Shown piece by piece: positions 17,058 through 21,788 of a stretch of 25,851 bases of DNA (its first letter is position 1; each line of letters starts with the position of its first letter). This DNA is from a virus. The stretch lies in the UHGV virus genome UHGV-0280754; one strand, written 5' to 3'. A program made the translations under genes and the position numbers. The notes beneath the pieces were generated by a model that saw nothing but the letters and a program-made list of their open reading frames with translations, did not search any database and was not told where the DNA came from.

Positions 17058-19225
17058 TGGCTAAAGCATGGAAAGATGTTATCGCTTCTCCACAGTATCA
17101 GGCGTTAACTGAAGAACAGAAAGCACAGGCTCAAGCGCAATATTTTGATGAGGTTGTTGCCCCTAAGGCTGGTGACAAATGGGCTGAAGCAAGAGATCAG
17201 TTTTATGCAGCATACCCTCCGCCTCAGCAGCAGAAAGAAGAACCATCATTGATGCAACAAGCTGGTGATTGGCTCACAGGTGGTCAAAGTGCAGGGCAAA
17301 TTGCAGAACAGGCTGGTCGTGGTCTGGTAAACATACCATTTGACGTATTGCAGGGTGGCGCAAGTCTGATTAATGCAATCAGCCAGGGGCTTGGCGGCCC
17401 CAAGGTTTTGGATGATGTTTATCGCCCTGTCGATCGACCGACAGACCCTTGGGCGCAAGCCGGTGAAACATTTGGTGGGTATCTCCTGCCAATTGGCACA
17501 GCGGCAAAAGTTGCTGGAGCGCCAGCAAAGCTCGCAGGAGACATCGGTTCCGCAGGAAACATGATTGCAGGTTCTCTTGCTGATGCTGCAAATCAGGAGG
17601 GCGACTTTGCACAAAATGCTGCCATTAACGGTGGTATCAATATTGGTGCTCAGGGGATACTTTCTGGGGCTGGAAGGATCTTAACCTCTAAATCACCTCA
17701 AGTTCTTGGTGGCGGGGCAATAAATTCCGCTGCTGATGTTTCGAAAATGGCAAAGTCTGGTACAGGAAGAGAGATTATTGCCAGACAGTCAGCTAATGTG
17801 TCAGACGAAATAGCAAAAGCAGCAGATACTGCTGGAATAGATATCAACGCATTAACTCCTGGCATGAGATCAGGTAGTCGTGGTCTTGCTCAGGCGGAGG
17901 GGATTCTGGCGTCAAAGCCCGGAATTACACAGGATGCACACACCAAAGCATTCAGTGAAATAGAGTCGAAATTTAACTCAGCATTGGATGAGTTTGGGGC
18001 TGAAGCAGGAACTGCATCAGAAAAAAGTGCAGCCATAAAACAAAGGGTTTTGGCAAGTATTGATAAAATGAAAAATTCAGAAAAGGCCGCATGGGATAGC
18101 GTCCGCTCCACGATGCCTGACGCAAAGGCCAGAATGTCAAACCTGAACGCTACAATTCAGGGTGATATTTTGGCTGGCATGCCGCTAACTCCTGAGATGA
18201 AACAATTCGCATCTGCTTATGCTAAAACTGGTAAAAAAGGAATCACGTTTGATGCCATGAAGGCATGGCGAAGTAAACTTGCTGACGCAGAGCAGAAGTA
18301 TATAAGGTCTGGTGAGGCAAATACGGCAAGGCGCATGGCTGAGCTTCGTGATGCAGCAACGGAAGATATGCGCATAATGGCTCAAAATGGCGGTTTTCTT
18401 GATGACTGGCAAAAAGCTAATGATCTGTCAAAGGCAAGATTTACAGCACAAGAACAGGCTGAAGCAGCGTTTGGTAGAGACCTTGCAACTGATCAGTTGG
18501 TAACTAATGGATCTAAGGCGTTACAGGGTTCAGCAAAAAGTGGAACAGGTCAGTTCCATAAAATAATAAGCGCCCTACCTGAGTCGGAACGCGCGCCAGC
18601 AATTGCATCAATATTACAAGATGCAATGTCGCAAGGGGTACGCGGAGGTAAGTCTGAAGAGGCTGGAATTAAGCATATCGCGACTATTCTTACCCCACAA
18701 AACGTGAAGGCAATTAGTCGATATTCTCCAGAACTTGGCAGGATTACAAGTTCATACGGAGAACTTGCACGAGCAGCAACAAAGCCACTTCGATATATTG
18801 AACAGACAGGGCGATCTATGCCAGCCATTAGCACTCTTGAGAATGGCCTTCATCCAGTTTTAGAGAGCGCATTGTCTGGCGCTTTTAGAACTACTGGCAC
18901 TATCGCAGGGTTCTCTGGAGGAGGCGTTATTGGAGCAATAGCGGGTGGCGCTGCAGGTGGGGCAATTGATGCAATGGCAAAAGGAGCGATAGCGAAATTA
19001 TCCGCAACTAGAAGCGGTCGTTACGCTATTGAAAAGGCTGTTCAAGAGGCAACAAAGGCAGTTAAGGTTGGGGCAAGTGATGGTGCATTAGCGGCGGCGG
19101 AACGCAGATTTATGGCAAATAAGGCCGCCGTAAAAGCAATACGCGAGGCACTAGGAAACGAAGAGTTCCAGCGTTTAGCAAGAGCTGGAATTGTGGCATC
19201 GCTAAGCGGAATGGCACAGGAGTAA
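17057..19225 (+). CDS. gp16-like ejection protein (722 aa)
   Basis: Position after the gp20-like gene (ATGA overlap); Gly/Ala-rich with predicted amphipathic segments; longer than P22 gp16 as I remember it. Confidence 0.7.
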
Positions 19226-19555
19226 TTAGTCATCCATGGATGGATTGAGCTTATCTCGTGTTGATGTGGCAATTTTCCCAACATTTTTCAACCAAGATTT
19301 TAAGAAGGATATGTCGTCCTTAATATCATGAATATCCTCATTCTTTATACGATCAACCTTATCCTCTAAGCTCTCTATAGAACGCTCAATGCTAGACAGA
19401 GAGATTTTTAAGTCCCCTTGCTCACGTTCCAGTGAGGATTTGAGAGCACAATATTCGTTTTCTAGAATTCCTATTTTTTTTGTTAGAGAGTGCATTCGAT
19501 ACTCATACACCAAACCAGAAACGACTAATGCAGCCAACAGAAACCATTCAAGCAC
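19226..19555 (-). CDS. Small membrane-anchored coiled-coil protein (109 aa), GTG start; positional analogue of sieA
   Basis: Minus-strand ORF with AAGGAGG 5 nt upstream of GTG; N-terminal hydrophobic helix LEWFLLAALVVSGLVY then heptad-rich acidic coiled coil; its stop abuts the gp16-like stop with zero intergenic bases. Confidence 0.6.
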   Translation of the reverse strand: MLEWFLLAALVVSGLVYEYRMHSLTKKIGILENEYCALKSSLEREQGDLKISLSSIERSIESLEDKVDRIKNEDIHDIKDDISFLKSWLKNVGKIATSTRDKLNPSMDD

Positions 19556-19929
19556 ACCAACCTCCTTAGTTTTGCTCAGGATACCAGATGATACTTTATT
19601 GGTGGAGTGGTGTGTGAAAACGTGTCAACGACAAACCATCCACAACTTGGACGAATGATTTAGCAAAAAGTGCTATTTTTGGTGTTTGGTGTCATAGAAA
19701 AGTGAATAGCTCACTTTTCAACATTGCATGAAACTTGCAGGAAATGTGACATTACCTTATAGGTAACTTCGGCGAAAATGCAGTAAATGTGAAACGTAAT
19801 GGTTTAAACATGTCGCTAAAGTGGTTGTAAGTTAGCCTCCGAAGGATTGCTGATAGCTTTGTTATAGTATTAAATGACATTTGACATAGTTGGATACTTA
19901 GCTGTGGCTATCAAGATGGAGGTGTGTTC

Positions 19930-20373
19930 ATGCTTACTTGTTTTGATGTCGCCGACTACTTCCTGTCGCGGTGTGACGAGGATAGCGGTGACGCAATCTC
20001 TAATTTAAAATTACAAAAGCTTGTTTACTATGCTCAGGGTTTTTCATTGGCGTTGCTTGGCGAGCCTCTTTTTCAGAATAAGATGGAAGCTTGGATGCAT
20101 GGCCCTGTTGTCCCTGAGCTTTATCACCGTTATAAACAATATGGTAATGGTGCTATCCCTTCTCCAGAGTCTTTTGATGCTGAAAAATTCAGCGAAGAAC
20201 AGTTAGAGCTATTAGAAGAAGTCTGGGATGTTTTTGGGCAATTTTCTGCCTGGAAACTGAGGAACATGACACACGAAGAGTCACCATGGAGATCAAACTA
20301 TATTGAGGGTGTTGGTGGTTCTGAAATTAGTTCTAAGGAGATGGCAGAGTACTTTGCAACTCGGATTAACTAA
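19930..20373 (+). CDS. Panacea (DUF4065, SocA/GepA-like) domain protein (147 aa)
   Basis: GGAGGT 6 nt upstream of ATG 19930 (ORF-track entry starts at GTG 19924); motifs NLKLQKLVYYAQGF and EAWMHGPVVPELY are what I remember as hallmarks of the Panacea/COG3600 family; AT-rich relative to flanks. Confidence 0.75.
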   Translation: MLTCFDVADYFLSRCDEDSGDAISNLKLQKLVYYAQGFSLALLGEPLFQNKMEAWMHGPVVPELYHRYKQYGNGAIPSPESFDAEKFSEEQLELLEEVWDVFGQFSAWKLRNMTHEESPWRSNYIEGVGGSEISSKEMAEYFATRIN

Positions 20374-20377
20374 CGAG

Positions 20378-20797
20378 ATGGCAAGAAAATCTAAAAGGAT
20401 TATCCCCCCTGCTGAATCTACAGGTAAGTTAAAGTTAGGGCCGCAGTCAGGGGGGAATTCAGATCAAAAGAAACCGAAATTTTCATTCTGTTACATCCAA
20501 AGCTCTCACTGCATAACGAAATGCCAAAAAGATGAGAAAGCTGGCTTAGCTGATAAATTATACAGATTAAGTCAACTAACATGGGCAGATATTAAGCAGC
20601 AAGGTAGGCATAAGCTTGGATTTGAGAAGATTGCAAGGGGTGCAATTAAAGCAGGTATCCCCAGTCATATAACGGAAGACGTAGATCATTTCTTGGCTTT
20701 TAGATTTGATGATTTGAAAGCCATGGTTGGTTATCGTCTTGGATCGACATTTTTTGTTATATGGCTTGATAGAGAGTTCAACCTATACAAGCACTAA
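20378..20797 (+). CDS. Unrecognised 139-aa protein translationally coupled to the Panacea gene (candidate toxin/effector partner)
   Basis: ATG 4 nt after the Panacea stop; basic Pro/Gly-rich N-terminus (MARKSKRIIPPAESTGKLKLGPQSGG), Cys/His cluster (CYIQSSHCITKC), C-terminal GYRLGSTFFVIWLDREFNLYKH; the ORF-track start at 20303 is an out-of-frame overlap extension and was not used. Confidence 0.6.
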   Translation: MARKSKRIIPPAESTGKLKLGPQSGGNSDQKKPKFSFCYIQSSHCITKCQKDEKAGLADKLYRLSQLTWADIKQQGRHKLGFEKIARGAIKAGIPSHITEDVDHFLAFRFDDLKAMVGYRLGSTFFVIWLDREFNLYKH

Positions 20798-20825
20798 TAA
20801 AACCCACCGTCAGGTGGGTTTTTTG
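20797..20825. terminator. Bidirectional intrinsic terminator between the convergent partner gene and mnt
   Basis: A-run (20797-20800), stem AACCCACC (20801-20808) / GGTGGGTT (20813-20820), loop GTCA, T-run (20821-20825); the mnt stop codon lies inside the hairpin. Confidence 0.65.
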
Positions 20826-21061
20826 TACAAATCCTTCAGCGTATCAAACACCATCTTCCTAACAAGTTCGGACTGCTCATCAGCGATGCGTTCTGCATCG
20901 TCTCGATAGCCTGCAATCGGTGATGGTTTTGATAGCGCATCCTGAACGATTTGTAATAACTCTGAGTTCATTGACCTTCCGTTAGCCTCTGCTCTTAATT
21001 TCAATTTTTCTCTTACTTCCAAAGGCATACGGAAGTTAAAGTGCGGATCGTCTCTAGCCAT
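20810..21061 (-). CDS. mnt: Mnt repressor (ribbon-helix-helix, 83 aa)
   Basis: Product MARDDPHFNFRMPLEVREKLKLRAEANGRSMNSELLQIVQDALSKPSP... matches P22 Mnt nearly residue for residue as I recall it; same length. Confidence 0.92.
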   Translation of the reverse strand: MARDDPHFNFRMPLEVREKLKLRAEANGRSMNSELLQIVQDALSKPSPIAGYRDDAERIADEQSELVRKMVFDTLKDLYKKPT

Positions 21062-21084
21062 GCCATCACTCCAAGTTAGTATCT

Positions 21085-21342
21085 CTAACTTTCGTCTTTA
21101 TTGTTGCTATACATGCATTTCAACTTCTCAACATCATGTTCAAGATCTATCAATCGTGATGCTATAGTTGCAAGGTCTAGTGCTTGAATGTGTTTATTTT
21201 TTTCGGTCCATGCTTCAAGTGCCGCGACCATCTCAGCATTTAATGAACGAGAATTAGCCTCAGCCAGTTCAATAAGACGTTCCTTTATCTCTACAGGAAG
21301 CCTCAGATTCACTTGAGGGTTTTTGTACTTACGATCAGACAT
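21085..21342 (-). CDS. Second Mnt/Arc-family ribbon-helix-helix protein with C-terminal coiled coil (85 aa from ATG 21342; GTG 21348 also possible)
   Basis: RHH signature NLRLPVEIKERLIELAEANSRSLNAEMVAAL; AGGA 7 nt upstream of the ATG on the minus strand; directly upstream of and co-oriented with mnt (23-bp gap). Confidence 0.75.
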   Translation of the reverse strand: MSDRKYKNPQVNLRLPVEIKERLIELAEANSRSLNAEMVAALEAWTEKNKHIQALDLATIASRLIDLEHDVEKLKCMYSNNKDES

Positions 21343-21388
21343 CGGCACATCCTGAATAATTTTTTACCACAGGATATGTAGGTATCTA

Positions 21389-21417
21389 TTGACTATCAAT
21401 GCGTACCTAAATACTAT
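21389..21417 (+). promoter_or_regulatory. Pant-like rightward promoter: -35 TTGACT (21389-21394), 17-bp spacer, -10 TACTAT (21412-21417)
   Basis: Near-consensus hexamers with optimal spacing about 30 bp upstream of arc; overlapping palindrome TGTATG-N7-CATACA (21417-21435) and direct repeats ATGCGTACC (21399-21407, 21420-21428). Confidence 0.55.
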
Positions 21418-21447
21418 GTATGCGTACCACATACAACGGAGGATGCA

Positions 21448-21588
21448 ATGAAGGTAAAAACACTGCGTATGCCAGAGAAGTTAGAAAAAATCCTTGAAGA
21501 GAAAGCAAAGGAAGAGTGTCGCTCATTTAGTGCAGAAGTAATTAAACGGGTGATGGACAGCCTGAAGAGAGAGGGGATAACGGTATGA
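21448..21588 (+). CDS. arc: Arc-like ribbon-helix-helix repressor (46 aa)
   Basis: Hand translation MKVKTLRMPEKLEKILEEKAKEECRSFSAEVIKRVMDSLKREGITV aligns with P22 Arc (…PREVLDLVRKVAEENGRSVNSEIYQRVMESFKKEGRIGA, from memory); GGAGG 5 nt upstream; below the ORF-track size cut-off. Confidence 0.8.
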   Translation: MKVKTLRMPEKLEKILEEKAKEECRSFSAEVIKRVMDSLKREGITV

Positions 21589-21788
21589 GTAAAGAATGTT
21601 GTTTCTGCGGCATTAGCGAATCAGACGCTGATCAAACATACATTTACTCTAAAGAAACAGGTCGGATGCTGTGTAGTGACTGCGTGTTGGACATCATAAG
21701 ATACAAGCATCTTGGATGTTCTGCCAGCATTAGCAATATAGGTGAAGTATATGAAGGGAAAGATATAACTGATAGAGCAGAAAGTTGA
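21585..21788 (+). CDS. Small Cys-rich protein (67 aa), putative zinc-ribbon, between arc and ant
   Basis: ATGA overlap with arc stop; Cys pattern CCFCG ... CSDC; no family recognised. Confidence 0.5.
   Translation: MSKECCFCGISESDADQTYIYSKETGRMLCSDCVLDIIRYKHLGCSASISNIGEVYEGKDITDRAES

Follow-up and report, generated by a model that had tools for sequence, protein, structure and literature searches.

The founding Panacea protein comes from SocAB of Caulobacter crescentus, a type VI toxin-antitoxin (TA) system, and 1268 predicted pairs of a Panacea protein (PanA) and a partner toxin (PanT) have been catalogued by Kurata et al. (2022, PNAS; PMC8832971). About 217 of the 1268 pairs, from many phyla, belong to cluster T1, which places it among the two largest PanT clusters of that catalogue, and clusters T14, T28, and T59 were already recognized as RelE/HigB-like. 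Dataset S1 of the study enters the Salmonella phage vB_SemP_Emek PanA YP_006560565.1 ('noNTD') and its predicted toxin YP_006560566.1 as cluster pT1/T1 (reciprocity 4|5, 'Phage'), and it also lists the Escherichia coli MOD1 pair WP_089622957.1/WP_077635758.1; both toxins are classed as 'mRNase' in Table S1. A further described protein of relevance is NsnC, the effector of Menshen, whose C-terminal domain is 'PB-BECR1', a YafQ-like member of the Barnase/EndoU/Colicin/RelE (BECR) superfamily with an H-R-H triad (PMC12065111). Here we analyze a locus in UHGV virus genome UHGV-0280754, a stretch of 25,851 nucleotides referred to below as the window. In it, a panA gene and a panT gene, with a leader in front and the terminator tMNT behind, make up a self-contained accessory unit (a moron) between the ejection-protein genes and the immI region (mnt-arc-ant) of a P22/HK620-like prophage.

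The pair in the window is already catalogued, as PanT cluster T1 of Kurata et al. Positions 19553 to 20827 share 99.9 to 100% DNA identity with the gp15/gp16 region of phage Emek and 99.3% with Escherichia phage phiv205-1. Emek YP_006560566.1 translates to the window protein plus 22 N-terminal residues, and the two fall in a common 90% cluster. We hold this identification of the PanA-PanT pair with high confidence. Like the Emek and E. coli MOD1 pairs, the window pair has the antitoxin gene before the toxin gene, a stand-alone PanA, a Lederbergvirus position, and a predicted 'mRNase' as toxin, and its 4-nt gap lies inside the spacing used for pairing by Kurata et al. (same partner, <100 nt apart, several species). 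Emek differs only in its surroundings: its left neighbor is Sf6 gp38-like, and on the right, three small open reading frames (ORFs) precede mnt. These PanA and PanT accessions were not among the entries of the NetFlax supplements. An earlier note, made from the sequence of the window alone, had taken the partner of PanA to be undescribed; that view has to be given up, since DNA-identical genes have been published. Neither the pair nor the combination of a Panacea protein with a RelE-type fold is new, because the Emek pair is catalogued and T14, T28, and T59 are RelE/HigB-like. As discovery, little is added to a pair that was published, guessed to be an 'mRNase,' and tested once. What is added is an explicit fold assignment for T1 with a near-invariant E-R-D-Y-H residue set, a sequence link between PanT and the effector domain of Menshen NsnC, evidence of wrong start codons in both tested constructs, and the exact limits of the mobile unit (from the start region of a divergent gene to the tMNT hairpin), together with its unusually conserved leader.

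That the first gene encodes a Panacea/DUF4065 protein had been recognized in the earlier note from sequence motifs, and a profile search agrees: residues 28 to 120 match Pfam PF13274 (SocA_Panacea) with an E value of 7.6e-25 and 88.5 bits (gathering cutoff, 25.7). PanA also matches phrog_1281 (PHROGs), and its RefSeq counterpart, WP_032219532, is named 'Panacea domain-containing protein.' It is an acidic protein (pI 4.56) of 147 amino acids (aa) without an extra domain, corresponding to the 'noNTD' PanA of Emek. Against the NCBIfam SocA equivalog NF047745, it scored 70.5 bits, below the cutoff of 190, so PanA is a Panacea protein and not a SocA orthologue. SocA orthology was rejected on this score, and PanT is unrelated to SocB.

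The pairing reaches well outside the enterobacteria: Vibrio cholerae, an acidobacterium, and a cyanobacterium each have a Panacea gene directly upstream of panT and in the same orientation. A scan of GTDB (one genome per species, with a closer 11-sequence PanT alignment as the query) recovered 15 panT loci from Proteobacteria, Bacteroidota, Firmicutes, Acidobacteriota, and Cyanobacteria, and panA was immediately upstream in all 13 that were informative. One of the other two ends at a contig edge; in the second, a metagenome-assembled genome (MAG), a frameshifted panT stands behind a different ORF. Distances from the panA stop to the panT start ranged from -14 to +14 nt at loci where a start could be placed. 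Conserved pairing of an acidic PanA with a basic PanT (pI 9.74) is the classical signature of a two-protein TA-like module, which suggests that the two genes are functionally coupled. The MAG, from Bryobacterales, holds the only locus without PanA (L018, 2514 to 3366), and the 273-aa ORF ahead of its panT has a TIR-like-looking N terminus (FDIFDVFISH...). The V. cholerae pair, also with a 4-nt spacer, lies among DUF645, acetyltransferase, and glyoxalase genes in what looks like a superintegron cassette array.

PanT is a 139-aa protein that corresponds to phrog_8366, a PHROGs family of unknown function. The sole trace in Pfam and NCBIfam scans was MAG6450_fam at an E value of 0.05, and literature searches for MAG6450 and for Emek returned nothing relevant. 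The only sequence-level tie to a named domain is a match to the PADLOC model of NsnC (E value of 4.3e-6), which covers profile positions 178 to 279 of 284, that is, the C-terminal RNase-like part. Membership in Menshen itself was rejected: PanT stands alone without the inactive-PIN N-terminal domain of NsnC, and its neighbors are gene 16, hkcB, panA, and mnt, with no NsnA (ParB/DUF262) or NsnB (ABC ATPase) nearby.

An AlphaFold2 model of PanT built on 36 homologues was confident from residue 33 onward (mean predicted local distance difference test [pLDDT] score, 84.9) and runs through a strand, two helices, a short strand, three long strands, and a C-terminal tail. The first ~32 residues are predicted to be disordered (pLDDT about 50), and the N terminus bears a conserved basic M-A-K..R-I-K-x-P motif. 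In two independent fold searches, the top matches were all RelE, HigB, YoeB, YafQ, and ParE toxins, which gives PanT a RelE-type alpha/beta fold; a Foldseek comparison with the viral structures of BFVD returned no significant match. The earlier note had seen a weak RelE/ParE resemblance in the partner, and this hunch is supported at the fold level. PanT differs from YoeB, YafQ, RelE, and HigB in lacking detectable sequence-family membership, in having an extra N-terminal region of ~45 residues (basic tail, short strand, and loop), and in its Panacea partner, where theirs is a YefM, DinJ, RelB, or HigA antitoxin. The published result for PanT of the window type is 'not toxic,' obtained with N-terminally extended versions.

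A hidden Markov model scan of 1.84 billion cluster representatives found 1537 relatives of PanT, and the best 150 of these were all short stand-alone proteins. Among 146 representatives with 30 to 55% identity to the window protein, G81, E83, R109, G118, D131, Y137, and H139 were 95 to 100% conserved. Of these, E83 (100%), R109, D131, and Y137 (97% each), and H139 (95%) are placed on beta2, beta3, beta5, and the C-terminal tail of the model. The catalytic set of YoeB is E46, R65, H83, and Y84. By secondary-structure register, the predicted arrangement in PanT matches this set, with Glu opening the short strand, Arg within the sheet, and a Tyr/His pair at the very C terminus, and the conservation pattern would fit an enzyme.

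Three starts for panT exist in public records, giving proteins of 161, 147, and 139 aa, and homologues support only the 139-aa ATG. The 161-aa Emek record YP_006560566.1 (gp16; L001, 3760 to 4245) starts at a TTG inside panA (window position 20312) and adds 22 residues (VVLKLVLRRWQSTLQLGLTNE...) before the ATG at 20378. For WP_077635758.1, the listed 'gap -20' implies a 147-aa call from a TTG at window position 20354, with 8 extra residues. The allele of EC.P3 and SCU-123 has a stop codon 3 codons upstream of the panT ATG, and at most other homologous loci the frame is closed 0 to 9 codons before the equivalent ATG, so the 139-aa PanT is the native protein and the published toxin records begin upstream of the true start, by 22 or 8 codons. 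Judging from the accession records, both toxicity-tested accessions appear to carry nonnative N-terminal extensions, of 22 and, by inference, 8 residues. One E. coli prophage matches the window at 100% identity from 19200 to 20850; in its RefSeq annotation, panT starts at the ATG corresponding to 20378 and panA at the start adopted here, with PanA entered as 'Panacea domain-containing protein' and PanT as 'hypothetical protein.' In E. coli SCU-123 (L026, 3290 to 3712), RefSeq annotates panA but has no entry for the second-allele panT, which is intact and encodes 140 aa; beyond this panT, on the minus strand, lie genes for a ClpP-like protease and an Arc-family protein.

PanT would most likely be a translation-linked mRNA endonuclease of the RelE/YoeB (BECR) fold. 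PanA, whose gene precedes panT in a tightly coupled bicistron and is translated first, would most likely bind PanT directly and hold it inactive; PanAs in general act via direct binding and not as ClpXP adaptors (PMC8832971), and direct toxin binding has been demonstrated for other stand-alone PanAs (PMC10440598). Since overexpressed PanT of this sequence was reported to be nontoxic in E. coli, PanT may be latent and require a trigger, with PanA as its keeper or sensor; a sensor role has been proposed for Panacea (Ernits et al. 2023). Harmless overexpression and this proposed sensor role together suggest that the module may serve the lysogen as a phage-triggered abortive-infection or superinfection defense and not as a simple addiction cassette. 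With moderate confidence, we favor this mechanism as a whole, that is, a latent RelE-fold RNase controlled by PanA and carried as a prophage moron, probably for phage defense.

Several observations weigh against it. YP_006560566.1 and WP_077635758.1 were both 'not toxic' when E. coli BW25113 expressed them from pBAD33 behind a strong Shine-Dalgarno (SD) sequence, and PanA neutralization is entered as 'n/a' for the nontoxic T1 toxin; the T1 member of Clostridium cadaveris was toxic and was not neutralized by its own PanA (PMC8832971). The earlier note had counted a nontoxic partner against its proposal of a TA or abortive-infection cassette, and 'not toxic' is the published outcome in E. coli for two near-identical constructs, both apparently miscalled at the N terminus. 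PanT has no match to any Pfam family at an E value of ≤0.1, including RelE, ParE, YoeB, YafQ, and HigB. A profile of the 36 homologues matched no PDB sequence at an E value of ≤10, and hhalign found no match between the PanT family profile and E. coli YoeB or YafQ (sequences with their catalytic positions checked). RelE-type families ranked first when the model was compared with the PDB by Foldseek, yet with nonsignificant E values of ≥0.067, and the proposed equivalence of the conserved residues to catalytic ones is one of secondary-structure register, not of superposition. PanA is covered by no PADLOC defense model, and a defense role for panAT is putative. Finally, consensus and relaxed scans found no credible plus-strand sigma-70 promoter in the leader that could drive expression in the lysogen.

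The toxicity results would read differently if panAT were a classical type II TA pair, serving addiction or stabilization, whose native PanT inhibits growth on its own and whose 'not toxic' scores are start-codon artifacts. We consider this possible but doubtful. The 161-aa call adds 22 nonnative residues and the 'gap -20' accession would add 8, an extension would bury the conserved basic N-terminal motif, and the stops found just upstream of the ATG in EC.P3/SCU-123 and most other loci speak for the same miscalling; the toxicity of the C. cadaveris relative and the retention of the unit in a decayed prophage also fit. However, enzyme activity is unlikely to be lost through 8 residues added to a tail predicted to be disordered, neither of two independent constructs was toxic, and the extensions are read from accession records. 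Less probable still is a RelE-fold PanT that is not directed at the host at all and is instead a nuclease that attacks phage or other foreign RNA specifically, or else a regulator that the phage itself uses in lytic growth. Such a role would agree with the harmlessness of PanT in E. coli, with the co-orientation of the cassette with the upstream virion genes (the late operon) and the failure to detect a promoter of its own, and with the very high conservation of the leader, which suggests RNA-level regulation. It sits poorly with the chromosomal, nonphage copies of the pair, which occur on a V. cholerae contig of small unrelated genes, beside a cyanobacterial type I restriction enzyme, and among housekeeping genes in Acidobacteria, and the conserved catalytic-type residues and obligatory Panacea partner better fit a controlled toxic effector.

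Two other activities were considered for PanT. A ParE-like DNA gyrase poison in place of an RNase is very improbable, as the near-invariant Glu, Arg, Tyr, and His (at the start of beta2, on beta3, and at the extreme C terminus) are typical of the RNase members of the fold and not of ParE. The earlier note had pointed to a C-terminal R-x6-H spacing as a HEPN-like motif, and R132 and H139 of the window PanT do have this spacing. The model, however, is a beta-rich RelE-like sheet and not helical, and R132 varies among the 36 homologues and falls below the 85% cutoff in the 146 relatives; HEPN was rejected on these grounds, and we give a HEPN-type RNase next to no weight. Returning to the favored mechanism of a latent RNase under PanA control, we can offer a more far-reaching form of it only tentatively: T1 might not be a conventional toxin but a latent RNase of the RelE fold, activated by its Panacea partner upon an infection cue, with the leader at 19587 to 19784 as the regulatory RNA or operator of the switch. 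If this were true, the commonest Panacea pairing would be a sensor-effector immune module, which would explain the failed toxicity-neutralization test. Should the native 139-aa PanT prove toxic, or the module phage triggered, this would settle what some 1500 diverged cluster representatives of the family do; T1-type members occur in about 1 to 1.5% of complete E. coli genomes. The residual interest of the locus lies in the function of cluster T1, in the start-codon problem of its sole published test, and in the conserved leader.

The leader is a gene-free stretch of 374 bp upstream of panA (19556 to 19929; GC content, 0.385). The earlier note had described it as an AT-rich control region of ~370 bp, and length and composition hold; the control role is unproven, because no convincing plus-strand sigma-70 promoter was detected. 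Identity between two alleles of the cassette is 94% in the leader versus 60 to 68% in coding DNA and reaches 98 to 100% over 19606 to 19805, which could reflect recent recombination or strong constraint. The noncoding block at 19587 to 19784 likewise shows 98 to 100% identity between the two alleles. A scan of 19200 to 21600 gave no Rfam match to the leader, which also contains no ORF of note, and its predicted plus-strand structure is in modest excess (z, -2.3). A plausible minus-strand promoter lies at 19618 to 19588, where P22 has PsieA.

The limits of the unit and its parts are given in the table below. The earlier note had placed two plus-strand genes 4 nt apart, and its coordinates proved exact in the ORF list and the raw sequence (spacer CGAG, 20374 to 20377). 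It had also called the cassette AT-richer than its flanks. With GC contents of 0.42 and 0.39, the two genes are AT-richer than the upstream virion genes (0.48) but not than the downstream tailspike gene (0.393) or the adjoining hkcB-like minus-strand gene (0.379). The terminator hairpin has a 10-bp stem and a 4-nt loop, with folding energies of -15.8 kcal/mol on the plus strand and -18.1 kcal/mol on the minus strand (z about -4; none of 200 shuffles folded equally well on either strand), and a T-run (a U-run in RNA) follows it on both strands. The bidirectional terminator seen earlier is therefore real, with the correction that the mnt stop codon, TGA (complement of 20810 to 20812), lies in the loop and not in the stem. 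Within the Rfam scan, the hairpin gave only subthreshold terminator-like matches (STnc420, 26 bits versus a threshold of 70).

Features of the panAT unit and the adjoining immI region (window coordinates)
Feature	Position	Strand	Evidence or remark
Left boundary and leader of the mobile unit	19553-19929	+	blastn/megablast edge; start/SD region shared with the divergent minus-strand gene takes up the first ~34 bp (19553-19586)
SD sequence GGAGG of panA	19918-19922	+	Read in the sequence, 7 nt before ATG 19930; RefSeq uses the identical start
panA, 147-aa stand-alone Panacea/DUF4065 protein	19930-20373	+	PF13274, phrog_1281, WP_032219532, Emek YP_006560565.1
panT (cluster T1), 139 aa; basic disordered tail (1-32), RelE/YoeB-like BECR fold (33-139)	20378-20797	+	
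Bidirectional intrinsic terminator hairpin (HK620 'tMNT'), common to panT (+) and mnt (-); right boundary	20799-20822	both	Fold energies; conservation in P22, HK620, Emek, and EC.P3
immI-region genes set against P22	21085-21348, 21448-21588, 21585-21788	-, +, +	

Gene order in this region is 16, sieA(-), PsieA, tmnt, orf59a(-), mnt(-) in P22 and 16, hkcB(-), hkcC(+), terminators in HK620; in the window, it is 16, an hkcB homologue (19226 to 19555, minus strand), the cassette (+), mnt(-). By this comparison, the cassette replaces the hkcC interval of HK620, or that of orf59a in P22, and not sieA, as sieA's place, on the minus strand immediately past gene 16, is taken by the hkcB homologue; replacement of sieA was rejected on that account. 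The earlier note's 'sieA slot' is apt for the variable region between gene 16 and immI, a home of lysogen-expressed accessory genes that the cassette has in common with P22 sieA and HK620 hkcB-hkcC, but not for sieA's own position. The cassette lies beside that position, on the opposite strand, and has no homology to SieA. The hkcB-like ORF encodes 109 aa (phrog_5962, unknown function); its product has a hydrophobic helix at the N terminus and, after it, a stretch resembling a coiled coil.

In megablast and blastn comparisons, position 19553 is where identity with Emek, phiv205-1, EC.P3, and E. coli prophages sets in. This left edge is the SD/start region that varying minus-strand neighbors have in common; the neighbor is hkcB in the window, Sf6 gp38-like in Emek, and a member of the YobH family in another prophage, and further prophages have other, unrelated small genes there. 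On the right, an accessory insertion at the 3' end of mnt had been suspected, and the unit does end at the mnt terminator, a preexisting terminator that is reused as a joint. The hairpin is identical or nearly so in P22, HK620, Emek, and EC.P3, while one or the other flank differs, and it behaves as a recurrent recombination joint. Between these differing left and right neighbors, the unit moves as a block in P22-like prophages. Among 5426 complete E. coli genomes, 48 carry this cassette allele and 85 carry the leader. Three further copies were inspected: one holds the second allele (70% protein identity for PanA and 51% for PanT), and another, in E. coli prophage ETEC6334, has lost the cassette and kept 19553 to 19784. 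In a decayed P22-like remnant, the panAT pair is still intact.

Beyond the unit, the immI region of the window contains a Cys-rich 67-aa ORF without a Pfam match between arc and ant. Where P22 has two ribbon-helix-helix genes in this region, the window has three: mnt, arc, and a second Arc-like gene of 87 aa.

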